From Candidatus Kapaibacterium sp. (lineage in GTDB: Bacteria; Bacteroidota; Ignavibacteria; Kapaibacteriales; JAEUSM01): a stretch of DNA of 64,000 nucleotides. The DNA lies in assembly GCA_016788785.1 (NCBI GenBank), contig JAEUSM010000011.1, positions 17,200-81,199 on the forward strand. The letters run 5' to 3'. Within the stretch, counting starts at the first letter, position 1. The number at the start of each line of letters is the position of its first letter. Below the pieces are notes generated by a model that saw nothing but the letters and a program-made list of their open reading frames with translations, had not been told where the DNA came from and did not search any database. Positions 6,890 through 25,378 of the stretch are shown piece after piece. The position numbers and the translations under genes are program-made.

Positions 6890-7327
6890 TTACAGTAATG
6901 CTCCCACATCATTGACTATTTGTTCAAATTGTTTGATGATGTGTTTTCCGGGACACAAAGTAGATGCACCGCTTAACTCTCGATGATAACGAATGGAAGC
7001 TCTATCAGCAGGTAATATATGCCGTTTGCAAATTCTTGCCAGTTGTTCTACCAAGAGTTTTCGAGCTTCTAAAGGTAATTCCGTTTCTTGGTAATTTCCA
7101 GCAACAGCAATTCCTATTGAACGCAAATTATGTCCTCGAGCGTGAGCACCAATCACTGATTCTTTACGACCTTCGGTTACAATCCAAACGCCATCAGGAC
7201 AATGGAGTAACCAATGATACCCAATTTCAGTGAACCCTCTCAGTCGGTGAGCTTTGTCGATGGTTTCGCGTTCTACATTCGGTCTGGTTGCTGTATGATG
7301 TACGATTATTTTGGTGATTGTTCTCAT
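6890..7327 (-). CDS. N-acetylmuramoyl-L-alanine amidase (Amidase_2/PGRP, T7-lysozyme-like)
   Basis: IVHHTA motif with a downstream His and a Cys near the C-terminus, as in zinc amidase_2 enzymes; 145 aa (endolysin-sized). Confidence 0.7.
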   Translation of the reverse strand: MRTITKIIVHHTATRPNVERETIDKAHRLRGFTEIGYHWLLHCPDGVWIVTEGRKESVIGAHARGHNLRSIGIAVAGNYQETELPLEARKLLVEQLARICKRHILPADRASIRYHRELSGASTLCPGKHIIKQFEQIVNDVGALL

Positions 7328-7614
7328 CGTTTTCTTTCCGAATGGTGATTCTGAAGTTCTTGGTTCATTTCTTGTACGTCTCGTTCAATTCTGTCTTTCC
7401 AAAGAGTTTGCTGTTCCAAAGCAAAAGAAACCCTTCGCATTTCCGTTTCAATTACCGTTATCTTATGGCTTACCTCTCCCAAACTCGAACCACCCCACAA
7501 CGTGGAACCTCCAACGATGAGACCCAGCATTATTTTCATCCATAAGGGAACGGAATTGTCAAAAAGTGGAGATTGTTGTTGTAACTTATTTTCCATATCT
7601 ATACTTTTTATCAT
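7324..7614 (-). CDS. small membrane / coiled-coil protein (holin- or spanin-like)
   Basis: One TM helix (WMKIMLGLIVGGSTLWGG) followed by a charged coiled-coil; 4-bp start/stop overlaps with both neighbours. Confidence 0.4.
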   Translation of the reverse strand: MIKSIDMENKLQQQSPLFDNSVPLWMKIMLGLIVGGSTLWGGSSLGEVSHKITVIETEMRRVSFALEQQTLWKDRIERDVQEMNQELQNHHSERKR

Positions 7615-8555
7615 AAACGTATTCCTTCCAATTGAGCAATGGATTTTGAGTGAACTAAGGCAATAGCCGCATCCAATTCCACAGTCGTTACATAGTGTAC
7701 ACCGACAATCCCACGGTCATAGACTTGCAAACCAGTATTTGTAGCAATGCTCAAATTCTCTTTTTCACCAAATCTAATAGCATAGATGCTGGTGCAATCA
7801 GCATTTGTTCCAACAGTCTCAGCATTTGTGATAACTTGCGATACCCCATCTTTTGCAACACCGCTGGATACGATAGGAATTCCCATATATGAGTCGAAAA
7901 CCTGTTGCGAACCAAAGGCATCGTTGACAGTTTGAACGCTGATATACTCTCGAGCAATGGCACGTAAACGAGCAATCATTTTATAGTTCATCACAATCAC
8001 CGAAGCGTTTCCATAAACAGAACCTATCAGCTCATCGAGTTTTTCCAAAAAAGTTTGCTGTTTTTGTTTGTTCGAATCAGAATTTCCTAAAGGAACGGTA
8101 TCGCCATTCGTACCCATCGAGATAATTTGTCCACTTGGTATCAATTCTTTGATACCCACCAAAGTAGAACCACTTCCATCACCATTGATAAATTGATCGG
8201 TACAAAAGCGTCCCAACGAACGAGAAAAACTCTCCAATTGTCTGGCACGTTCGGAAGTGGTCGTAAATCCGCGTCGTTCAAATGCTTGGTCAGTGCGAAT
8301 GACATCACCCAAAATTTTTAGTGAAACGGTCGTTTCGTTAACGCTGGAAGTAACGGGACTGTAGTCGTTATTTACTGTTCGAGTTTGACCGCCAAAAGCA
8401 GTTGCATTCGTTGTAAACGTATCTGCATTTCCAGTCATTTTGTACCATTCGGCATAGCGAAACAGCGGTGCCTCTGATTCGAATGCAGACAGTGCTAATG
8501 AGCGTAACTCGGGTGTAGATGAAGCAGTTTGGGTTGATAATTGTTGTAATTTCAT
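7611..8555 (-). CDS. phage major-capsid-like protein (hypothetical)
   Basis: 314 aa, no signal peptide or TM segment. Size and the Gly/Thr-rich, loop-heavy composition suggest a capsid (HK97/gpE-like) fold, but this is not confirmable by eye. It sits in an operon with an amidase and a holin-like gene. Confidence 0.35.
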   Translation of the reverse strand: MKLQQLSTQTASSTPELRSLALSAFESEAPLFRYAEWYKMTGNADTFTTNATAFGGQTRTVNNDYSPVTSSVNETTVSLKILGDVIRTDQAFERRGFTTTSERARQLESFSRSLGRFCTDQFINGDGSGSTLVGIKELIPSGQIISMGTNGDTVPLGNSDSNKQKQQTFLEKLDELIGSVYGNASVIVMNYKMIARLRAIAREYISVQTVNDAFGSQQVFDSYMGIPIVSSGVAKDGVSQVITNAETVGTNADCTSIYAIRFGEKENLSIATNTGLQVYDRGIVGVHYVTTVELDAAIALVHSKSIAQLEGIRL

Positions 8556-8567
8556 AAAGGTGAATCC

Positions 8568-8951
8568 TTAGAGTGATGATAAAAATGATTGTTCGGCTGC
8601 AGAACGTAGTGAAAGGTGAGAGGGAAGTGCTGTTGGCACTTGCGAAGTAGTTGTTTGTTTCGTTGACTGAAAGTATTCCAACACCGTTGCAATAGCCGTT
8701 GGATTATATTCTAACAGCGTTTTCACTGCATTCGATACATCTTCATTTAACGCAGGGTAATACCCTTTGTGAAGAAAGTCAGTAACGTGTTGATTAATTA
8801 CATCGGAAGAAGTCTTTTCAAACGCAGAAGATTGAATTTTTTCCAATTCAACTTCAATTGTTTTCATTTCTTCAGAATTTGAAACTAAGGAATGTTGTTC
8901 CTCATTATCACCAAAAAATTTGTCCACCAATGAGCGGATAGTGGTTAGCAT
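8568..8951 (-). CDS. hypothetical acidic alpha-helical protein (scaffold-like?)
   Basis: 127 aa, acidic, predicted helical; first gene of the capsid-like operon. Confidence 0.3.
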   Translation of the reverse strand: MLTTIRSLVDKFFGDNEEQHSLVSNSEEMKTIEVELEKIQSSAFEKTSSDVINQHVTDFLHKGYYPALNEDVSNAVKTLLEYNPTAIATVLEYFQSTKQTTTSQVPTALPSHLSLRSAAEQSFLSSL

Positions 8952-9100
8952 ACTGTGTACTTTCGGTAGGATTTACAAAATTGTGAATGCAATCTACTAC
9001 GGAGTGAAAGTTGGATTTGGCTATAAGTGTTGGGAGGGGGGGGAATGTTTCTTTACATCAAGATGGGCATTTTGACAACGATGAACCTTTTGACAACGAT

Positions 9101-9217
9101 GGGCTTACACCCATCGCTGAGATAGTACGCCCTTTCAGGGCTTGATGTTGTTTTTTTTAATGTGCGTTTTCACGATGGGCTTACACCCTTCGCTGAGATA
9201 GTACGCCCTTTCAGGGC
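9101..9217 (-). repeat. REP doublet (two copies of gggcttacaccc[a/t]tcgctgagatagtacgccctttcagggct)
   Basis: Two near-identical 42-nt double-hairpin units at 9101..9142 and 9176..9217, in direct orientation. They are the reverse complement of the REP units at 9770..9882. Confidence 0.85.
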
Positions 9218-9235
9218 TTTATGAATATGCTTTGT

Positions 9236-9688
9236 TTAATCCCAAAGATACTGTTCGTTGTAATCAATAGAATATTTATGTAAAAAAGCTTTATATTCTT
9301 CTTCAAATGAATTGTTTTTATGATGCTCATGCTGGTTATTAATGTAAGTAATTACTGCATCTATGTGTGTGGGATTTACTGAAAATGCTCCGTAACCATC
9401 TTGCCAATAAAAGTGCTCTAAAGTAGCATCCTTTGTTTTCATCCACATTGAGGATCTAGATTTAAGCTCTCCAACAAGTTTAGACAGAGCTATGTTTTTT
9501 GACAACAAACAAAGAATATGTATATGGTCAGTAAAACCTCCAACTTTTATAACTGTACATTGAAGTTTGTTGCAAATTTCACTCAGAAATTTATGTAATT
9601 CTGTTTCAACATTTGGTTGAATGTACGGACTTCTATTTTTTGTACTAAATACAATATGTATGTAATTTTTTACTAATGATTGTCCCAT
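9236..9688 (-). CDS. REP-associated tyrosine transposase (RAYT; IS200/IS605 TnpA-like, Y1 HUH)
   Basis: HUH motif (HIHIL), conserved Tyr in the C-terminal half, ~150 aa, flanked on both sides by REP doublets in inverted orientation. Confidence 0.8.
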   Translation of the reverse strand: MGQSLVKNYIHIVFSTKNRSPYIQPNVETELHKFLSEICNKLQCTVIKVGGFTDHIHILCLLSKNIALSKLVGELKSRSSMWMKTKDATLEHFYWQDGYGAFSVNPTHIDAVITYINNQHEHHKNNSFEEEYKAFLHKYSIDYNEQYLWD

Positions 9689-9769
9689 TTCTCTTCTCTT
9701 AAATGAATATTGATTCTATTTTTTCATCTTGACGATATTCAAAACAAAAGATGTAAATCAAGCCCTGAA

Positions 9770-9882
9770 AGGGCGTACTATATCAGCATAGGGTGTAAGC
9801 CCTATGTTGATAAATGTATTGTCATTTCAGTAAATCAAGCCCTGAAAGGGCGTATTGTATCAGCATAGGGTGTAAGCCCTAT
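9770..9882 (+). repeat. REP doublet (agccctgaaagggcgta[c/t]t[a/g]tatcagcatagggtgtaagccctatg)
   Basis: Units at 9770..9805 and 9837..9882. Each unit forms two hairpins (gccc-tgaaa-gggc and cataggg-tgtaa-gccctatg). Confidence 0.85.
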
Positions 9883-9890
9883 GCTGAAAC

Positions 9891-10523
9891 CTAAAATATT
9901 GGCTTTAGGTATTCCCAACCTTCGGCTCGCATATCAGTCCAAGAAAAACCGTCGGTGTCGTTACCGGGCATAACGAAGACTGCATCTGAAATACAAGTGG
10001 TGAAATCAATTTGTTTGATACGTTGGAGTAATGCAGAATAGGTTGTGCGGTCATTGATTGCGGATTCTTCGACAGAATCCGCAAATTCACTGAGTTTTTT
10101 GAAGGAGTTTTTTTGTTGAAGCAAAAAAAGTATTGACACTACGATGTAGTGTTTGTCGATGTCAATTCGGTCGGTATCGTTCCAATCTTCAGTTGCACCA
10201 CCTGTTTCTTGGTCTATGGAAGAAGAATCAATATCATCAACCCATTGATTGAACTCTTGTTCGGCTGTTTGTGGGTTATCAATGACATCCCAATATCCAT
10301 ATTCTGCGAAAGGGAGTAATTCCAAAAGCACATCCGAAGTTTCTTTATAGAATTTCCACTTTTGTCCAGCAGTTTGCTCTGACGGAATTGCTGCAATGGC
10401 AGAATGGATTCGTTCGCGAATATTATCTTCAACCGAATTGAGAATTACTAATTGTAACCCTACAAATCCAGATTCGTCTTCGTTAGCACCAAACAGTGCT
10501 TTAAACATTCCTTTAAACTTCAT
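9891..10523 (-). CDS. hypothetical acidic protein
   Basis: 210 aa, acidic (D/E/W-rich middle), no recognisable motif. First-listed gene of the three-gene unknown cluster. Confidence 0.4.
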   Translation of the reverse strand: MKFKGMFKALFGANEDESGFVGLQLVILNSVEDNIRERIHSAIAAIPSEQTAGQKWKFYKETSDVLLELLPFAEYGYWDVIDNPQTAEQEFNQWVDDIDSSSIDQETGGATEDWNDTDRIDIDKHYIVVSILFLLQQKNSFKKLSEFADSVEESAINDRTTYSALLQRIKQIDFTTCISDAVFVMPGNDTDGFSWTDMRAEGWEYLKPIF

Positions 10524-10535
10524 ATTTTCAGTTAC

Positions 10536-12161
10536 TTACGAGAAGAATCCACCACCACGTGAGCGTCCGAAAGATCCTGAACGAGTGCCGCCTCCAGAAC
10601 GGTAAGCAGAACGGAATGAAGAACCAAAACCAACTGTTTTTCCTGTTGCCATTGAACGATTGACGGTTACTTTGCCAAAACCAGTAGGGCGAGTTTTTCC
10701 AAATCCACCCTTTCCTCCTACTGAACGTGATGCAAAAGAGGTTGTTCTACGTGCAGGAGAATAATTTGGTGCTGATGCATAACGATTGTAAGCACCCGAT
10801 GGAATCGATGTTCTATAATATGAACGATACATTGGGTAATGATAGAAAAAGAACATAGAACCCATTGGAGAACCACCATAATAATAATTCGTTGCATATT
10901 GACCAGTTCTATTTGGATTTTGGTTTGCTGCAGCAACTTGTTCTTTTGTTTCTTCAAATCGAGAAATTGGTAGTAATGCTACTTGAATTCCTTTTTCACG
11001 ATAGGTTGCAAATTCTTCGTTTATATCATCTTTTTCAATTTCTAATTCCGAAGGGGTAATATACACTACATTAGTAATGCCAGCAGATTTCAATTCATCA
11101 ACTGTAGGCAAATCTACATTATAGCGATTGTCAAAATTACCTTCTTTGATTGGTTTTAACTTCCCATCTTTTTCGGATTCAAATCTATTTCTATCCAAAA
11201 GCATCACTGTCGCACGTTTTTTCGCAGTATTTTTTGCTTTTTCACGTTCAACATAGGATGCATAATAAAGAGAAGTAGCCAAGGTTTCATGAGCAGGAAC
11301 TTCGCCTAATGGGTGAGGCCAGTTATTGAATGTTGGAATCAAGTCTGCAACATCCGCTAATGCAGCACCAACTGCAACTGATTCCCAACCTTTTAAGTCA
11401 ACCACAACCAAATTTACTTCAGGATTTTGAGCGTCCAAAAGAATTTGACGAACGCCTAACCCTTTGTTGAAGGTAGTTTTGGTAATCTGATTTGCTGAGG
11501 CTTTCATTTGAGTTTGTAAGGTTTTTTGACCTAATGACTCATACAATGAAGCGGAACTATATTTTTTGAAACGCTCGTTTGAAGGCATATAGACCTTCTT
11601 GAGCATATCAGGATTTTTGTACTTATTCCATTGAGAAGATGGCATTCCCATGTAATCCATTTCTGTAGGTGCATTGAATGCAACTTTTAAATCATCTGCA
11701 CCGGTATCCCAACCTTCTTTTTTCTGCAAGGCAACGGAATCTTCTTCTGTAACAGTAACATCATCATCGTCATCTGAGACACATTGATATAGTAGATACC
11801 CTGCTAAAATTGTACCACCTGACCATGCTAATACTTTTCCTAAAGCTTTACGACGAGAAACTGGTTTTGCCTCTGAAAAAGACGACACATTTTCACCACT
11901 ACTTCCACTTGAAGAACGAATGGTATCCAATGCTTGATAATAAATCCAATAATAATTATGATCTCGTTCATTATCCAATTGATGCATTACATATTCATCT
12001 GGAAATGCGTCAATAGTTTCGTCATCAAATTCAACTAAAATTTGGTTATCTTCAATTTCACTAACACGTCCTGTCCATCCGGACATATCAATTTCAGTTT
12101 CTTTGTCATGGAACCCAGGCTTGATCTTTACAGGTGTACCTACAGTTAAATTGTGGCTCAT
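10536..12161 (-). CDS. hypothetical membrane-anchored protein with conserved central domain and RGG/YG-rich C-terminal tail
   Basis: 541 aa. One TM helix (res ~110-130), a DDDDD linker, and a central ~150-aa domain paralogous to the next gene (motifs NWPHPLG, LLD.NR, N..YITP). The C-terminal ~130 aa is Gly/Ser/Arg/Tyr/Phe-rich low complexity. Confidence 0.5.
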   Translation of the reverse strand: MSHNLTVGTPVKIKPGFHDKETEIDMSGWTGRVSEIEDNQILVEFDDETIDAFPDEYVMHQLDNERDHNYYWIYYQALDTIRSSSGSSGENVSSFSEAKPVSRRKALGKVLAWSGGTILAGYLLYQCVSDDDDDVTVTEEDSVALQKKEGWDTGADDLKVAFNAPTEMDYMGMPSSQWNKYKNPDMLKKVYMPSNERFKKYSSASLYESLGQKTLQTQMKASANQITKTTFNKGLGVRQILLDAQNPEVNLVVVDLKGWESVAVGAALADVADLIPTFNNWPHPLGEVPAHETLATSLYYASYVEREKAKNTAKKRATVMLLDRNRFESEKDGKLKPIKEGNFDNRYNVDLPTVDELKSAGITNVVYITPSELEIEKDDINEEFATYREKGIQVALLPISRFEETKEQVAAANQNPNRTGQYATNYYYGGSPMGSMFFFYHYPMYRSYYRTSIPSGAYNRYASAPNYSPARRTTSFASRSVGGKGGFGKTRPTGFGKVTVNRSMATGKTVGFGSSFRSAYRSGGGTRSGSFGRSRGGGFFS

Positions 12162-12216
12162 TGTTTTGATGTAGATTGTTCAAGAAAAAAGAAAAATACG
12201 AAATTATTTTCAGTCT

Positions 12217-13047
12217 TCAAACTTTATTGATAAAACTTATTCGTTTGCTAAACATTGTCGATCGTTTTATATACTCTTTTTCTATAATACCTTTGTTGTT
12301 TTGAGTATTAAACCATAAGAGAGAAATCCCTGCATTGACATAATAACAAAAATCCTCATGTACATCATCGATATCATTATCGCTATTTGTAGCATAGATG
12401 ATTGTGAGAATATTTCTTTGTTTGAGTGATTCTATTGTTGGGAGTTTTGCTGTGGATCTATTGTCAAATTGAGTAGGATTATCGGTGTAATGGACTAATC
12501 TATTTGCGTCTAACAAAAGAAGTGGTAATTTTTGAGTATGTTCCGTTTTAAATTCTTCTTTCCATTGATACAGCATTTCCAAAATAGTTGTTGATGAGGT
12601 GATACCTAATGGATGAGGCAATGAATCAAACCCAAGAATTGGTTCGAAAACGTTCTTTGCTCCTACGGCAAAGGCAATAAGTTGTTCTGTAGGAAAATCC
12701 GCAATACAAACTGAGTTACCAATTTCACTTTTTTCAACAATTTGAGCAAATTTTTCACCATAGTTATAGAATTGACTATCAATAGGATGATGATTGGAAA
12801 TGTTGATTTCAAACCTATTTGATGTTTGCATCAAATAATAATTTGACCATTGAAGCCATTCCTCAGATGGAAGAAATGCTTTTATTAAGATACTTTTCGT
12901 ATCAAATTGAATTGCTGGAAATTCTACAGTATTATTCAAATGAAGTTCAATTGGCAGCTCTTTATCTAATCGAAGATAGTTTAAAAAAACTATTTTTTCT
13001 TCCTCAGAAAATTGCTTTTCCATTTTAAAGCTCTTCCACCAATTCAT
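12217..13047 (-). CDS. hypothetical protein, paralog of the central domain of the upstream 541-aa protein
   Basis: 276 aa. Shares colinear blocks with the 541-aa protein (SLPHPLG vs NWPHPLG; LLLLDANRL vs VMLLDRNRF; ILTIIYATN vs TNVVYITP; EDFCYYVNAGISL vs EEFATYREKGIQV). Confidence 0.5.
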   Translation of the reverse strand: MNWWKSFKMEKQFSEEEKIVFLNYLRLDKELPIELHLNNTVEFPAIQFDTKSILIKAFLPSEEWLQWSNYYLMQTSNRFEINISNHHPIDSQFYNYGEKFAQIVEKSEIGNSVCIADFPTEQLIAFAVGAKNVFEPILGFDSLPHPLGITSSTTILEMLYQWKEEFKTEHTQKLPLLLLDANRLVHYTDNPTQFDNRSTAKLPTIESLKQRNILTIIYATNSDNDIDDVHEDFCYYVNAGISLLWFNTQNNKGIIEKEYIKRSTMFSKRISFINKV

Positions 13048-13144: not shown

Positions 13145-14836
13145 GTGCGAATTACAACACCAACCATCTATATATATTTCATTATCCTTTCTGCTGTTCT
13201 CTTTATTCCCTTTTTGGGGAATGTACATTTATTTGATTGGGATGAAATCAATTTTGCTGAAGCTGCCAGAGAGATGATTGTCAGCGGAGATTATTTGCGT
13301 GTCCAAATAGATCACGCTCCATTTTGGGAAAAACCACCGTTATTTATTTGGTTTCAGGCTATTTCGATGAATATATTCGGTATAAATGAATTTGCAGCAC
13401 GACTCCCCAATGCATTGATTGGAATTGTAACAATTACAGTTCTTTTTTGGACTGGATTGACGTTTTTTGATAGGAAGGTAGCCATATTTTGGTCTTCGGT
13501 CTATATCGCTTCGTTATTACCTCATTTTTATTTCAAATCAGGCATCATTGACCCACTGTTCAATTTGTGTATTTTTTCGACATTTGTTGTTTATGCGTTT
13601 TATCACAAAAAATTGACACAAAACCCCAAAAAACCATATCATTTGGTTGCATTGATGGGTGCAATATGCGGATTGGCAGTACTAACAAAAGGTCCTGTTG
13701 GATACTTACTCTTTATACTACCATTTACGATTGTTTCTATTTGGCGAATTATAAAAAAGGAATCATCAATTCTTGATTTTCTTATCGAAGCTTCCATTGC
13801 AACTATTGCTACAATTTCGATGTGTTCTTTGTGGTATGGAACGGAAATATTGGTGAATGGTCCTTGGTTTATGGAACAGTTCATTCAATATCAAATTCGT
13901 TTATTGACAACTGGAGATGCAGGACATAGCGGACCATTTTTCTATCATGCTGTTGTTTTGTTGATTGGATGTTTTCCTGCAAGTATCTTCTTTTTTTCTT
14001 CCTTGCGAATCAGAAAAGATGAAAATCTAACGGATAATCAGATACTATTCCACCGACTAATGTTGGTCTTGTTTTTTGTGGTATTAATACTCTTTTCTAT
14101 TGTCAAAACAAAGATTGTTCATTATTCATCGATGGCATATTTTCCGATAACATTTTTTGCAGCTCTTACTTTAACAAAGTTAATTGACAAAAAAATCGAT
14201 TGGAAAACACATTACACATGGTTACTATTTACACTTGGATTGTTATTAACAACTCTATTTGCATTGTTGCCTTGGATTGGAATGAATGCACAATGGTTGC
14301 AACAATATATTCGAGACAGATTTGCTAGAGAAAATTTGAATGCATCAGTAGAATGGACAGGAATAGAATTTAGTATAGCAGGAATTTTTCTTCTTACCAT
14401 TATTAGCACGTATGTATTTATCAAAAAGGAAAAAGTCTTTCAAGCAATGAGCACCTTGTTGGTGGGTTCTACAATTGCAATTGCAATGTTTTTACCAATG
14501 ATAGCACCAAATATTGAAGCGTATTCCCAACGTGCGGCGATTGATTTTTTTCAATCAGTGAAAGATTCTAATTGTTATGTTGAGGTATATGGGTATAAAA
14601 GTTATGCAGATTTGTTTTATACACAAAAAAAACGTTGGCAAACGACTTCAGAAAGTTTCAAAAAAACTTCATTAACCTTCGAACAATGGCTACTATATGG
14701 AGAAATTGACAGACCTGTCTATTTTGTGTCAAAAGTTACCAATACAGATTTATTTTCTGTACCTGGAATGCGATTACAATACTCAAAAAATGGGTTTTTA
14801 TTTTTCAAAAGAGAGCCTCCTTTCTCTATACGGTGA
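13145..14836 (+). CDS. ArnT/PMT-like (GT83/GT39) undecaprenyl-phosphate-sugar dependent glycosyltransferase
   Basis: 563 aa with >10 TM helices. The N-terminal periplasmic-loop motif DWDEINFAEAAREM matches the DE...AEIAREM signature of ArnT/PMT-family glycosyltransferases. Confidence 0.75.
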   Translation: MRITTPTIYIYFIILSAVLFIPFLGNVHLFDWDEINFAEAAREMIVSGDYLRVQIDHAPFWEKPPLFIWFQAISMNIFGINEFAARLPNALIGIVTITVLFWTGLTFFDRKVAIFWSSVYIASLLPHFYFKSGIIDPLFNLCIFSTFVVYAFYHKKLTQNPKKPYHLVALMGAICGLAVLTKGPVGYLLFILPFTIVSIWRIIKKESSILDFLIEASIATIATISMCSLWYGTEILVNGPWFMEQFIQYQIRLLTTGDAGHSGPFFYHAVVLLIGCFPASIFFFSSLRIRKDENLTDNQILFHRLMLVLFFVVLILFSIVKTKIVHYSSMAYFPITFFAALTLTKLIDKKIDWKTHYTWLLFTLGLLLTTLFALLPWIGMNAQWLQQYIRDRFARENLNASVEWTGIEFSIAGIFLLTIISTYVFIKKEKVFQAMSTLLVGSTIAIAMFLPMIAPNIEAYSQRAAIDFFQSVKDSNCYVEVYGYKSYADLFYTQKKRWQTTSESFKKTSLTFEQWLLYGEIDRPVYFVSKVTNTDLFSVPGMRLQYSKNGFLFFKREPPFSIR

Positions 14837-20659: not shown

Positions 20660-23600
20660 TTATCGATGAAGAAATGGGGTAACCTTTTGTACACTCGGAG
20701 TTTTTAATTGAACAAAGTACAACCCATTGGGTAAACGTTGATGAGGAATTACGATACTTTTTGTTTGAATCCCTTTGTTATCAAACAATATTGGCTCAAG
20801 TATTTGTACACCAATACTCGAATATAAACTCACTTCATGGAGACCATGTTCAATCATAGAAACGGAAACCACGATATCATGTTGCTGTTGAGTTATTCCA
20901 AGAGCTATAGTTGTGTCTGAATCAAAAACTAAACGATTTCCACCAGATTCACAAACTCCCAATAGTGTAAACGTTCCTGGTAATATTGTTACATCGATCG
21001 GAGCATTTGTAGCCATTGAGGTCAGTGCTGTTAACGACGTGATGGTATCATTACCCAACATCACATCGAAATTAATTTGATCAATAATTGGTTTTTTCTG
21101 TTCGTCAAGTTGATATCGCAAAGACTCCTCGCGAATACCTCCAGATAAAACAACGCCCTTTTTTGAAAGTGGGTACAGCAATGTAGCATTGTATTGAAGG
21201 GTAAATTCTATTTCAGGTTGTACTCCCAATACATCAGTATTTGTTTCTGATACTATCGAAACGGGTATTGAAACCTTATCACCTGGATATCCCTGAGCTG
21301 AACCAATTTGCAAAACAATTGCAGCTTGAGTAGGAATTCCCTCAACTTTGAACGTATCTTGTACTCCGCAAACATCTCCTGTAAGAACGACATCTACTGA
21401 GGATGCTGTTGTCGTTGCTGCAGAATAAATCACGGGAACAAAGACAGATTGATTGGCTGCTACAAAAAGTGTTATAAAAGTCGTATCAAGCGAAAATGGT
21501 GATATCAGGGAAAATTGTGGTAAACTTACATCTGTTGATGAAGTATTTGTAACTTTCACATACCCTCGTTTTTGCGTTCCTACGATTGCAAAAAGTTGTA
21601 AAGGTGTGATTTCTATTTGTGGATGAATAACCGTACCTGTCAAACGAATTGTATCGATTTTTCCGCAAATGGTATTTGTCAAATATAGCTCTTTTGTAAA
21701 ACTTCCAACTGAATCTTTAACAGTAAGGCTACATTGCAGCGTTGTTTGATTCCCAACATCTACATTCGCAGTTGTTAATGTAGGGTTGTCGATTATTTGT
21801 GTATAAGAAATGGAAGCTGGTAATGAACCAATATTTGTAACATTAATAGTAAATGGCACAACACTTCCAAAACAAACAGTTCCAATATCAATAAGTTGCG
21901 GAGTTTGTATATCAATCAAATCCTTACGAGCTTGTATCGGTATTGATAATGCTGTATCTGTTATGGAATTACTTCGAACAATTATCGATGTTTGTTTGGT
22001 ACCAAATGTTTGAGGCACGAACCGAATTTCAATGCTTCCTGTCTCATTTGGTTCAACTGTTTGTGGGAACGAAACAATCTCAAAATCTGTAGCATTTGCT
22101 CCAGTAGGAGTCACAGAATATAACGATAACGAACTGATCCCACTATTGGATATGACAATCGTACTTCGTTGCTCAGTTTCGCACGTAATTGGAGCAAAAT
22201 TTGCAGTTGTTACTTGCATTTCTGCTCCTTTGTTTATTCCAGTTCCAAATAGCGGAGCATACAACGGTGAACCAACCTTGTCATACGCAATTGCAACCCT
22301 TCCCGAAGTCCTTCCGATTGCGTTGGGACGAAATGCTATATCAGAATACAATGTATCGCCAGGTTTCAATGTTACAGTAGGCATTTGTTGTAACGGTAGA
22401 AAATCTACGACATTTGGCTCAATAATAGAAGTACCTAACACATCAACTGAAGCAGATCCACGGTTAATTGCCAATGGAATTCTCGTAGAGTCTTTTTGTT
22501 GATACAGATTCACTTCACCAAAATCAACATAATTTGCTATAAGTTCTAACGAAGATTCTAATCCAATACCTTTGACTGTATATTCCAAAGTATCGCAGGG
22601 AGTTTTGATAGTAATGAGACCTTCACGAGGACCTTGTTGTTTAGGGGAAAATCGAACTTCTATCGGCAATGAGTTATTTGCTAAAACCATTTGTTTACCA
22701 GCCGAACTGACTATCTCAAATTCGTTAGGAAGTGACGATTCCACCCAAACGGTATCGATTGATGCATCATATTGACTAGCATTGAGAGTATAACTCATAA
22801 ACATAGAGTCACGTGAGGTTCCAACAACTTGAGCCGGAAATTCGATATTTCTAGCACTCAATGTTGGTCGAACAATACTCCATACATTATCAGATGTATC
22901 TTGTTGAAGTGGCAGGACATCAGCAGACCATAATCTTGCGGTTCTATCTGTACTTGTTGTAATAAAATAATCACCCAAATGAGTAAAAAACGCTTTTGTA
23001 ATAAACGGTGTATTGAAGGTCTCATGTCGAACTACAGCCAATTGTTCACCGGATTCTACATCGAAAATACGAGCAGTTCTATCATCGCCATACGTAAGAA
23101 TTTTAGTTTCATCTGGAGAAAGCTGATATCCTATTACATTTCCTGTGTGACCAATGTAAGCAACTAAAAGATTTCCATTGGTACTGCTCCAGCTTCGAAC
23201 AATACGGTCATTACTGATGGTGAACATTTTCGTTCCCGAACGATTCAAAGTTGCTTCCATCCCACCAACTACATACAAAAAAGTTTTAGAAAACACGTCA
23301 AAGACAACGGTTTTTTCATCACTCGATCCATACACCCAACGGTTGTTTTTAAAGAACCCACATTGTTCCATCCCCCAACCATCTGCTTTAAAAATAGCAA
23401 TGGTATCATACGTTTTTGCATCCCAAATACGGAGAAATCCGTCGCGTGAGGCAGTAGCAATTTTTGTCCTGTCATCTGAAACTGCTGCTGAATGCACAAT
23501 GTCTGTGTGATAAACTAAGGTAGCAAGTAATGCTCCAGTTCGAGAATACCACACTCGAACCGTTCTATCATTCGACGATGAAAGCAGTAAAGAATCATCT

Positions 23601-25378
23601 TGCGAGAATGTTAGGTGATTGATACCGCTTGTATGTCCACGTAAAGAAAATATAGTATCAATGGTTGTTGGATTCCACAAAAATATCGATCTATTTGAAT
23701 GAGAAGTGGCAAATCGAGTTGCTTTGTTGTTGTAAAGAATATTGTTTGGAAGTCCTGCATTTCCGTAGCGTAATCTTGCTAACGTATCTCCAGTGAAAAC
23801 ATCCCACATATAGACAAAGTTATCTTGTGAAACCGTAATAAACTTGTCTTCTTTGGGAGATGCAACGCCATCAGTTACAGATTCACGATGAAGTCGATAG
23901 GATTTGAGAGAATCTAATGGTGCTGAGGACAGTTGTTTTACTCTCAACAAACATTGCGTAGAAGTTGGAAGTGGAATATTTTTCCAATAGTAAGCAAGTC
24001 CTGCACCTTGACGTGTAATCAGATTCCATTTTTTTCCTTTATCGTAACTATATTCTATACTAACTGTGTCCAAAGAGGTAATTCCTGACCAACGAAGAAT
24101 CGAATCAGTTCCTGCAACCAATTGTTCTCTTCCATTAGGGAAATCAACCTTTAATGTTCGAAATTTGGGTCTTTTACCTCTGAATCCTCCTGAAGCATAA
24201 AATAACTGTTCACCACATTCAGTCGTTTGGAACCGAAGTTCGGTAAAGGTAAATCCTGAGTCCTTTGGAAAATACGACAATGTTAAAAACACAGAATCTC
24301 CAGAATTTAGCGAGAAGTTTCGTGGTGCAATAGTATAATCAGGATTAACAGTAATAATATTGGAAATGGTCACATCACCATTCATAGCAACTACTTTGAT
24401 AGTCGTATCATATTGCTGATTGAGTGGTTTATTGAAAAACGTTACTTGTTTCGGATACACTTGCAATTCTTTTACCGCAAGATCTCGAGGTGCGACATAC
24501 CTACCAGTATCCACCGAATTGCTGGGTTTATATGTTGCTTTTACGGTTCTATTTCCATTGCCACACGTTACAAATCCCTCCCATTCAATATGACATGGAG
24601 TTACCTCAATTGCTTCAAGAAATATTTGCTGAATGACAGCATTCATCTGCTCAATTGTCGAGATATTTTGAAACACCTTTCCATTCGTTTGATTCGCAAT
24701 GTAAAATAACGAAGCTGGTGCTGACATACTCAGCGTTATACAGTAAATCGTAACACTATCTTGTTGGGCGTCTCTAACGATTTTTTGCACATCTCCACCA
24801 CCTTGACCATCGGTGATAAACAACACAATTCGTTTGTTTTTTCCATTCTTTGCAACAGGTATTGCACCTGCTAATGGCACCCATAACGCTTGGTCGTAAT
24901 TCGTTCCACCTTGCGGTTTGAGCAATGGAATTTTCGACAGCAAAGTTTCCTTTTTTTTGGTGAAATCTTGCAACAAATACTGACTATTATCAAAGGCAGT
25001 AAGAGCTATTTCGGATTCAAACGGAAGTAAATTCGTAATTTGTTTAGTACCTTCTTTCAGAAGCACCATATTGGAAACACCAGATGCTCCCCAACTCATC
25101 GAACCGGAAACATCAGCCGTTACAACAATGGAAAGCTTCTTTGCAGTATCCATCACCGAACATTGCACCAATCGAACAGTTCGGGGCACTTGGTTTTCTT
25201 CAATAAGAACGTCCGAAACGTTTGGAGTGATAAGCGTACCCACCGAATCAAAGACAAACATCTTTGCCGAAATCAACGGAAAATTCGTCGGATCAATGCC
25301 AAAAAGCGTAACTCCTTGTGAAAATACGCTCGACATTGCAACAAAAAATATCCAAAAGCAAGTAAATAAAAACCGCAT
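20660..25378 (-). CDS. giant secreted vWA / WD40 / Ig-like repeat protein with T9SS C-terminal sorting domain
   Basis: 1572 aa. Signal peptide; vWA domain with MIDAS DxSxS (DVSGSMS); a WD40 propeller region (res ~500-800, repeated ...SxDxxxxxWD); a long run of Ig-like beta domains; a C-terminal ~80 aa typical of a Por-secretion CTD. Confidence 0.75.
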   Translation of the reverse strand: MRFLFTCFWIFFVAMSSVFSQGVTLFGIDPTNFPLISAKMFVFDSVGTLITPNVSDVLIEENQVPRTVRLVQCSVMDTAKKLSIVVTADVSGSMSWGASGVSNMVLLKEGTKQITNLLPFESEIALTAFDNSQYLLQDFTKKKETLLSKIPLLKPQGGTNYDQALWVPLAGAIPVAKNGKNKRIVLFITDGQGGGDVQKIVRDAQQDSVTIYCITLSMSAPASLFYIANQTNGKVFQNISTIEQMNAVIQQIFLEAIEVTPCHIEWEGFVTCGNGNRTVKATYKPSNSVDTGRYVAPRDLAVKELQVYPKQVTFFNKPLNQQYDTTIKVVAMNGDVTISNIITVNPDYTIAPRNFSLNSGDSVFLTLSYFPKDSGFTFTELRFQTTECGEQLFYASGGFRGKRPKFRTLKVDFPNGREQLVAGTDSILRWSGITSLDTVSIEYSYDKGKKWNLITRQGAGLAYYWKNIPLPTSTQCLLRVKQLSSAPLDSLKSYRLHRESVTDGVASPKEDKFITVSQDNFVYMWDVFTGDTLARLRYGNAGLPNNILYNNKATRFATSHSNRSIFLWNPTTIDTIFSLRGHTSGINHLTFSQDDSLLLSSSNDRTVRVWYSRTGALLATLVYHTDIVHSAAVSDDRTKIATASRDGFLRIWDAKTYDTIAIFKADGWGMEQCGFFKNNRWVYGSSDEKTVVFDVFSKTFLYVVGGMEATLNRSGTKMFTISNDRIVRSWSSTNGNLLVAYIGHTGNVIGYQLSPDETKILTYGDDRTARIFDVESGEQLAVVRHETFNTPFITKAFFTHLGDYFITTSTDRTARLWSADVLPLQQDTSDNVWSIVRPTLSARNIEFPAQVVGTSRDSMFMSYTLNASQYDASIDTVWVESSLPNEFEIVSSAGKQMVLANNSLPIEVRFSPKQQGPREGLITIKTPCDTLEYTVKGIGLESSLELIANYVDFGEVNLYQQKDSTRIPLAINRGSASVDVLGTSIIEPNVVDFLPLQQMPTVTLKPGDTLYSDIAFRPNAIGRTSGRVAIAYDKVGSPLYAPLFGTGINKGAEMQVTTANFAPITCETEQRSTIVISNSGISSLSLYSVTPTGANATDFEIVSFPQTVEPNETGSIEIRFVPQTFGTKQTSIIVRSNSITDTALSIPIQARKDLIDIQTPQLIDIGTVCFGSVVPFTINVTNIGSLPASISYTQIIDNPTLTTANVDVGNQTTLQCSLTVKDSVGSFTKELYLTNTICGKIDTIRLTGTVIHPQIEITPLQLFAIVGTQKRGYVKVTNTSSTDVSLPQFSLISPFSLDTTFITLFVAANQSVFVPVIYSAATTTASSVDVVLTGDVCGVQDTFKVEGIPTQAAIVLQIGSAQGYPGDKVSIPVSIVSETNTDVLGVQPEIEFTLQYNATLLYPLSKKGVVLSGGIREESLRYQLDEQKKPIIDQINFDVMLGNDTITSLTALTSMATNAPIDVTILPGTFTLLGVCESGGNRLVFDSDTTIALGITQQQHDIVVSVSMIEHGLHEVSLYSSIGVQILEPILFDNKGIQTKSIVIPHQRLPNGLYFVQLKTPSVQKVTPFLHR

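Follow-up and report, generated by a model that had tools for sequence, protein, structure and literature searches.

A Kapaibacterium gene cluster as a proposed lineage-specific form of a widespread, unstudied bacterial module

What kind of system is encoded by three unnamed genes that follow one another on one strand of a Candidatus Kapaibacterium contig? The genes lie in a 64-kb stretch of contig JAEUSM010000011.1 (NCBI GenBank assembly GCA_016788785.1), hereafter the window, whose numbering is used for all coordinates. We label them A (276 aa, 12217-13047), B (541 aa, 10536-12161) and C (210 aa, 9891-10523). All three lie on the minus strand with gaps of 55 nt (A-B) and 12 nt (B-C), in the co-oriented and tightly spaced arrangement described by the original prediction, which had been made from the sequence. 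That prediction took the cluster for an uncharacterised envelope-associated system, perhaps an enzyme pair formed by A and B, with a condensate-forming or polymer-binding tail on B. The features reported below support an envelope association that has yet to be characterised; the enzyme pair and the condensate fared less well. We read the cluster as a form, particular to its clade, of a module that is widespread in bacteria and as yet uncharacterised; here B encodes a predicted exported or anchored alpha/beta protein of an unnamed family with a conserved polycationic tail, C an acidic, soluble protein with a putative divergent DUF1517 (FLAP1/FlpA-type) domain, and A a signal-less paralogue of the B core.

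The distribution of B was surveyed with a pattern scan covering one genome per species. Relatives were recovered from 230 species genomes, which their record titles assign to Kapaibacteria, Thermochlorobacter/Chloroherpetonaceae, Ignavibacteria and Blastocatellia/Pyrinomonadaceae, besides some metagenome-assembled genomes (MAGs) with doubtful labels, the closest relative in the scan being a Candidatus Kapaibacterium MAG with 80% identity. B homologues fall into more than 198 clusters, all of them unnamed and without Pfam domains; with so many relatives, the features of the cluster cannot be put down to chance. A gene-neighbourhood census, which the original prediction had proposed, was run by calling open reading frames (ORFs) in the best 80 loci and searching them with seed proteins; denominators are species-level loci with enough flanking sequence. 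In 66 of 71 loci a C homologue lies downstream of B and shares its strand, and the adjacency was also seen in six of six independent contig look-ups. The conserved unit is B plus C, not the A-B-C trio. Upstream of B, 31 of 73 loci encode an ATP-grasp enzyme of the GSP_synth family, often with a gap of 0-30 nt or an overlap, and a DUF350 (YjfL-type) membrane protein is found at 11 of 73; the Pfam scores of the module ligase and DUF350 proteins pass the gathering thresholds. The complete set, DUF350 - GSP_synth - B - C, is present at a high-GC metagenome locus (L093). A profile search with C against 1.84 billion representatives returned 183 matches at E<=1e-3, among them C relatives of ~190 aa, which the four-gene arrangement at L093 places in the same module; one single-protein metagenome scan for these shorter relatives found none, and a second scan gave L093. 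Lineages in which the B-C pair has the ligase and DUF350 ahead of it are other Kapaibacteria, Chlorobi-like bacteria, Ignavibacteria, some Acidobacteria and one high-GC lineage. Neither the ligase (tblastn with three module ligases) nor DUF350 was found in the 64 kb of the window, nor were they found in its clade.

The tail of B (residues 406-541) contains 17% Gly, 14% Ser and 18% aromatic residues and has a net charge of +18, in agreement with the Gly/Ser/Arg/Tyr/Phe-rich tail originally described. Conservation by region was measured in a 72-sequence alignment as pairwise identity among distant members. It reaches 66% in the polycationic tail proper (residues 464-541; 10539-10772, minus strand), 60% in an aromatic/Gly segment that precedes it (YYYGGSP...FFFYHYP, residues 424-445; 10827-10892, minus strand), 59% in the alpha/beta domain and 52% in the helical subdomain; shuffling the tail residues within each sequence lowers the tail figure to 14%. 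The tail is thus the most conserved part of B and does not represent low-complexity drift, a doubt that had been raised together with the prediction. It carries the motifs YYYGGSP..WFFxHY, YxPxxRPTxFS, VGGxSGxGKxRPSGFGRxSVR and RSGRSGS[YF]GRSxGG (example tail peptide: RSGRSGSYGRSGGGWFGG), which for the polycationic part can be written more loosely as YxPxxR(P)TxFS, VGGxxGxGKxRPxGFG[KR]V[ST]V and RSGS[FY]GRSxGG, and in the aromatic segment residues Y426, Y428, G429, G430, F438 and Y442 are invariant or nearly so. This segment was also considered as a second classical transmembrane helix and rejected as insufficiently hydrophobic, its maximum Kyte-Doolittle hydropathy over 19 residues (KD19) being -0.06. 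Across the 72 members the net charge of the tail lies between +10 and +18 and acidic residues number about one each, and every B protein stops 7-8 residues past GS[FY]GR, with small-residue ends (GG, SG, SS or FS).

With a predicted local distance difference test (pLDDT) score below 50 in the AlphaFold2 (AF2) model, the tail looks disordered in isolation yet under strong positional constraint, which argues for a specific partner and against condensation driven by composition. The low pLDDT and the Gly/Ser/Arg/aromatic composition would suit an RGG/FG-like disordered region that drives condensates or binds polymers non-specifically, as the original prediction had envisaged. The weak positional conservation that goes with a phase-separating region of this type is refuted by an identity of 66% across phyla, above that of the folded domain, where composition predicts 14%; the motifs and the end point are fixed as well, and the predicted location of the tail is outside the cytoplasm. 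We regard this explanation as very improbable.

Upstream of the tail, several parts can be told apart in B. Residues 1-80 (11922-12161, minus strand) form an acidic, SH3-like beta-barrel in the AF2 model (pLDDT ~78), which matched NdhS, KOW and SH3 domains in Foldseek searches with probability ~1.0. This domain is confined to the clade of the window, is absent from distant members of the B family and is predicted to be cytoplasmic. A folded domain preceding a signal that resembles those of the twin-arginine translocation (Tat) pathway is unusual. The signal- or anchor-like part itself (residues 101-128; 11778-11861, minus strand) consists of the motif VSRRKALGK (101-109), with its Arg pair at 103-104, and a Gly-rich, moderately hydrophobic segment (106-128; KD19 maximum 1.29). 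R103 and R104 are invariant in the B family. All 60 distinct B N-termini show the sequence W[WF]x(3-4)[LIV][ST]RR, followed by a Gly-rich hydrophobic (h) region and an acidic run; 59 of the 60 match [ST]RRx[hydrophobic], and in 16 of the 60 a lipobox Cys closes the hydrophobic segment. The pattern looks like a twin-arginine-type or lipoprotein signal or anchor, and in the window protein, where it is preceded by a 100-aa N-terminal region, it probably works as an uncleaved anchor. The acidic run, kept across the family, corresponds here to the linker SDDDDDVTVTEED (residues 129-141; 11739-11777, minus strand, read from the sequence), which includes poly-Asp at 130-134 (SDDDDD). The anchor and poly-Asp linker of the original prediction are thus both present. 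Together with the positive-inside rule, the signal pattern places core and tail, by deduction from sequence, on the outer face of the cytoplasmic membrane.

The core of B (residues 142-405; 10947-11738, minus strand) is modelled with confidence (AF2 pLDDT ~90) as a helical subdomain (142-243) followed by a five-stranded beta/alpha, Rossmann/flavodoxin-like domain (250-398). In the 72-sequence alignment its invariant polar residues are H283, D323, R326, D344-N345-R346 and D378-D379. The core matched no Pfam or NCBIfam family and gave no Foldseek-PDB match at E<=1e-3. One search of PDB sequence profiles returned none at E<=10, and the others only matches near E=1, the best at 1.1 over 24 residues. 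This 24-residue stretch resembles phosphoglycerate kinase (NRxxAxLPTIxxL); it is not colinear with the other motifs of that enzyme and was treated as chance. PADLOC defence models matched none of the three proteins, two neighbouring genes giving only ~13 bits (E 0.006-0.007), and a PHROGs scan of A and C, in which B was not included, gave no match. The domain shared by A and B, which the original prediction had been unable to assign, therefore maps to no family in these collections, and of the two points on which that prediction had staked itself, membership of a known enzyme family was not found and the tail proved conserved in orthologues.

Proteins A and B had been described as sharing a colinear domain of ~150 aa. 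The paralogy and the motif blocks stand; the shared region is longer, at about 200 aa. BLASTP aligns the two proteins over 217 aa (A 47-243, B 180-394) with 25% identity and E=1e-16, and the blocks PHPLG, LLDxNR, FDNR and DDxxEDF align between them; the two are true paralogues. All the residues that are invariant in the B core are kept in A. Homologues of A fall into 10 clusters only, every one at least 50% identical, and the places that carry A all lack the ligase: they are the window, locus L008 and two loci syntenic with the window (L091 and L092), and A there takes the slot held by the ligase in other lineages. Identity of the window proteins to those of L091 and L092 is 50% and 58% for A, compared with 80% and 87% for B, 85% and 90% for C and 81% and 87% for the tyrosyl-tRNA synthetase (TyrRS). 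A is a clade-restricted, fast-evolving paralogue of the B core. Typical B proteins from other lineages, at 30-35% identity and ~100 bits, are closer to it than the adjacent B, which scores 66 bits and ranks 119th of 121. Both copies have diverged: B gained the N-terminal SH3-like domain, and A lost the signal and most of the tail. The C-terminus of A carries a short conserved motif, KRSTMFSKRISFINKV, in which KRSTMFSKR matches the tail motif RPT[IM]FS of B above shuffled sequences; since the match is six residues long, a leftover of the tail motif is suggestive at most. Unlike B, A has no export signal in its sequence, and its co-export with B is speculative.

These observations bear on the proposal that A and B are an enzyme pair, for example a hydrolase or phosphatase built around PHPLG, acting on an envelope substrate, with a tail that only tethers or targets. 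An enzymatic activity of the B core is possible, given that the polar residues listed above persist in both paralogues despite 25% identity and that the beta/alpha model is confidently Rossmann/flavodoxin-like. Yet the check for a hydrolase or phosphatase fold (structure model with Foldseek-PDB, and profile searches) gave no enzyme-family match; conservation in the tail exceeds that in the presumed catalytic domain; and B bears an export signal that A lacks. The pairing is not the conserved feature, as A is clade-restricted and fast-evolving (50-58% identity against 80-90% for B and C), and the unit that recurs is B with C, often accompanied by the ATP-grasp enzyme and DUF350. An A-B enzyme pair is on this evidence unlikely.

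The near-constant partner of B, protein C, had been described as an acidic protein in a cluster of unknowns. Its acidity is clear (isoelectric point 4.28, net charge -20), and C is strongly anionic across lineages; it is, however, not anonymous. The window protein matches PF07466 (DUF1517) at E=1.8e-4, with 22.0 bits against a gathering cutoff of 23.3, and residues 30-199 of its 210 align to positions 13-175 of 184, covering nearly the full domain. Six of eight close members of the C family match the DUF1517 profile at E<=0.01 (best E 3.9e-6), the relative P0164 scores 30.5 bits and acidobacterial partners carry precomputed PF07466 matches. On the strength of these profile matches we provisionally assign C to a divergent DUF1517 (FLAP1/FlpA) domain. 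The AF2 model of C shows a four-stranded alpha+beta fold with an acidic disordered loop (pLDDT 72) and has no match in the PDB. Window C has no hydrophobic segment (KD19 maximum 0.84), no signal peptide and no transmembrane helix of the FLAP1 type. An N-terminal transmembrane helix with basic residues after it is present in the acidobacterial C proteins and absent from the kapaibacterial ones; on this pattern the C domain is probably cytoplasmic, and C would act at the cytoplasmic face of the membrane.

The DUF1517 proteins that have been studied are FLAP1 of Arabidopsis (At1g54520) and FlpA of Synechocystis. Both affect H+ fluxes, neither has a known interaction partner, and FLAP1 has a transmembrane helix before its DUF1517 domain (PMC9174948). 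What FLAP1 does at the molecular level is not known. Protein C matches this domain over nearly its full length, and acidobacterial C proteins share the FLAP1-like helix ahead of it. In contrast to FLAP1 and FlpA, window C is soluble, comes from a lineage of non-phototrophic type and belongs to a family in fixed pairing with B. Canonical cyanobacterial and plant DUF1517 members may carry an N-terminal Gly-rich SGGRxGGSF stretch; such canonical members are absent from the best 150 matches of the C profile.

Three side observations concern C. A conserved motif, RR[GS]F, stands just ahead of the first DUF1517-like strand in C orthologues of L001, L003, L006 and L007 and in those of L002 and L005, reading MNRRGFF at the N-terminus of kapaibacterial proteins and RRSF just past the transmembrane helix of acidobacterial ones; window C has KFKGMF. 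The C domain was seen with one clear fusion partner only, in P0266 (317 aa), where a C-like DUF1517-type domain is joined to an alpha/beta-hydrolase domain (Abhydrolase_1, 1.1e-15). P0257 (406 aa, from a high-GC contig) contains the C-terminal part of a B homologue and a C homologue, together with an Arg-rich stretch that looks out of frame. A frameshift or an error of gene calling is the probable origin of P0257, which is not a true fusion and independently shows the B-C adjacency.

In the genes that it contains, the full module parallels the operons yjfL-yjfM-yjfC and ygiB-ygiC of E. coli, which comprise DUF350, a GSP_synth-family ATP-grasp and an exported or lipid-anchored protein. YjfM and YgiB are laid out like B: the N-region is basic and leads into a signal or lipobox, an acidic linker stands behind the Cys, and the domain that comes next is succeeded by a hydrophobic Gly/aromatic patch and a Gly-rich, basic tail ending in GG. 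Their domain is, however, the small Cys-rich DUF1190, where B has a core of ~260 aa with an alpha/beta fold; none of 15 B members gave any Pfam match, DUF1190 included, and hhalign comparison of B with YgiB and YjfM gave probabilities below 2%. Homology between the tails was considered and rejected: the motifs are alike by eye, but hidden Markov model scores were no better than those of 500-1000 shuffles. The E. coli yjfLMC and ygiBC operon regions that were retrieved contain no DUF1517 gene, whereas the B module has its DUF1517 partner. The window departs further from this operon type, as an adjacent GSP_synth gene, an adjacent DUF350 gene and a DUF1190 domain are all absent.

A second likeness is found among the operons combining DUF350, a lipoprotein and an ATP-grasp enzyme that were catalogued by Ravi et al. 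(2024, mSystems; PMC11237479), whose supplement lists a 'LipoSIG+Ctha_1186+Low-comp' protein next to DUF350 in PspA-polyamine operons. Its architecture (lipoprotein signal, novel domain, low-complexity tail) is that of B, the DUF350 neighbour is shared and the Ctha_1186 domain is named for a Chloroherpeton locus tag, B relatives occurring in Chloroherpetonaceae. Likened here by description of its architecture, the Ctha_1186 domain may be the same as the B core. The Ctha_1186 operon also includes genes for spermine synthase, PspA, CesT and DUF4178, which were not observed beside B.

The ligase raises the question of whether the tail of B is itself a substrate. Among ATP-grasp enzymes, RimK acts on ribosomal protein S6 and glutathionylspermidine synthase on a C-terminal Gly, and GSP_synth-family enzymes use the C-terminal Gly carboxylate. 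By analogy, the ATP-grasp amidoligase of an ancestral four-gene system, which adjoins a protein with an exactly conserved C-terminus, would add a polyamine or amino acid to the C-terminal carboxylate of B, perhaps before Tat export, and this step might have been lost in the clade of the window. The ligase gene immediately upstream of B, often overlapping it, at 31 of 73 loci and at L093 would accord with such a role, as would the small-residue ends at their fixed distance from GS[FY]GR and the twin-arginine motif, which fits export following cytoplasmic modification. E. coli YgiC and YjfC join peptides to spermidine and their physiological substrates are unknown, according to the account of Pederick et al. 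(2023) given in PMC11762307. More than half of the loci, the window included, nevertheless have no adjacent ligase while their tails are equally conserved. The ligase could equally make a small peptide-polyamine conjugate, and modification of B, in contrast to that of the RimK and glutathionylspermidine synthase substrates, is extrapolated from enzymology for a module whose ligase the window lacks. B termini of the WFGG/WFSG type, found at 35 loci, never stand beside a ligase; this association tracks phylogeny and is not independent evidence. A substrate role for the tail seems to us improbable.

The explanation that we prefer, tentatively and with a confidence slightly short of an even chance, is that the cluster is a clade-specific derivative of an uncharacterised envelope module with a constant core of B and C and a role in envelope charge or ion balance. 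B would be exported and anchored through its twin-arginine-type signal or anchor, holding its alpha/beta core and polycationic tail at the outer face of the cytoplasmic membrane, where the tail would bind a defined anionic partner (membrane, envelope polymer or protein) and would not form a condensate. With C acting at the cytoplasmic face, the pair may adjust envelope charge or cation/proton homeostasis, by analogy with FLAP1 and FlpA. The module would be a relative of the yjfL-yjfM-yjfC / ygiB-ygiC operon type in which B stands in the place of the DUF1190 lipoprotein, and in ligase-bearing lineages it would be linked to polyamine conjugation, either through modification of the B C-terminus or through a small conjugate. 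The window version would have lost ligase and DUF350 and would carry the paralogue A in that position, B having gained its SH3-like domain. Between the window and L091/L092, conservation of B and C reaches the level of TyrRS, which counts for this explanation.

Several points weigh against it. A window that lacks both ligase and DUF350 is one to which the polyamine link may not apply; the B tail has no statistically supported similarity to the DUF1190 tails, and the module ATP-grasp is only distantly related to YgiC. Window C scores just under the Pfam threshold for DUF1517. With a periplasmic tail and a cytoplasmic C, the complementarity of their charges cannot mean direct contact, and with a signal-less A the shared domain would have to operate in two compartments. 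The topology of B, moreover, is drawn from sequence rules, and the functional ties of B to C and to the ligase are deduced.

A more far-reaching joint version, which we think quite unlikely, would make B and C (with ATP-grasp and DUF350 where present) a trans-envelope charge-homeostasis device. The tail would serve as a protein-borne 'polyamine', a YgiC-type ligase would cap its C-terminus before Tat export, B-type proteins would be the missing partner class of DUF1517/FLAP1 proton-flux regulators, and A would possibly be co-exported by hitch-hiking on the Tat pathway. If true, this version would identify the long-sought natural substrate class of YgiC-type ligases. The module joins three open problems, namely the substrate of YgiC/YjfC, the partner and function of DUF1517 and the Gly-rich basic tails of exported bacterial proteins, and the very tight B-C linkage, the frequent translational coupling of ligase and B and a tail conserved above the folded domain yield concrete, testable hypotheses. 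Should it be merely another uncharacterised envelope operon, its main value is that the core and tail of B define a new protein family, recognisable by a clear genomic signature.

The original prediction had placed the cluster beside a REP-associated tyrosine transposase (RAYT), where REP denotes repetitive extragenic palindromic sequences. The RAYT does adjoin the module; its adjacency is incidental, as relatives carry the same genes without it. The element occupies 9096-9887, outside the module, and its gene (9236-9688, minus strand) encodes an IS200/Y1 transposase (Pfam Y1_Tnp, 2.4e-28). On each side of it are two tandem REP-like units (9096-9223 and 9753-9887) of ~52-58 nt in inverted orientation, each holding a GCCCTTTCAGGGC hairpin with arms that are 80-87% complementary, which is the textbook REP/RAYT arrangement. 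At L091 and L092, which share the whole neighbourhood of the window apart from the RAYT, nothing comes between C and the gene that follows it, and the intervals measure 218 and 403 nt, compared with 939 nt in the window. Since the 939-nt gap is occupied by the RAYT and its REP-like units, their adjacency to the module reflects a recent insertion. The order at L091 and L092 is PMT_2 (divergent), A-B-C, a 127-aa gene, a 314-aa gene, a ~100-aa gene, an amidase and FUR, and housekeeping genes (TyrRS, phosphatidylserine decarboxylase and phosphoglucose isomerase) flank the module.

The genes of the module might alternatively be cargo of a mobile element or a prophage remnant, given the RAYT directly downstream and, on the same strand, the homologue of a major head protein and the endolysin-type amidase that follow. 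We hold this to be extremely unlikely: the B-C pair is spread over 230 genomes, in chromosomal settings that vary and contain no phage genes, no relatives of B were found in viral (IMG/VR) or plasmid collections, the RAYT is absent from the syntenic relatives and the flanks are housekeeping genes.

Four co-oriented genes directly downstream of the module, beyond the RAYT (6890-8951, minus strand), encode a 127-aa protein, a 314-aa capsid-like protein, a 96-aa coiled-coil protein with one transmembrane segment and an Amidase_2 protein of endolysin type. The 314-aa protein is an epsilon15 gp7-like major capsid protein (NCBIfam 7.7e-28; PHROG major head protein 2.9e-35). The four-gene set keeps its chromosomal position in L091 and L092, the capsid-like gene being 84-91% identical and thus matching the conservation of TyrRS; constancy of place and sequence together suggest a phage remnant that has been domesticated and stays under purifying selection rather than a prophage in decay.

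Divergent from A, an ArnT/PMT_2-type glycosyltransferase gene (13145-14836, plus strand) matches the NCBIfam model for lipid IV(A) 4-amino-4-deoxy-L-arabinosyltransferase at 8.3e-32, far below the model cutoff, and could be another envelope-charge gene. The arrangement is kept in L091 and L092, where synteny with the window spans everything, so that conservation of the A/glycosyltransferase pair is uninformative. Further along, a 1572-aa ORF (20660-25378, minus strand) has its probable counterpart in a 1572-aa gene at the matching end of L091, which carries VWA_2 and many WD40/beta-propeller Pfam matches and is followed by a gene for a sigma factor of the extracytoplasmic function (ECF) type.

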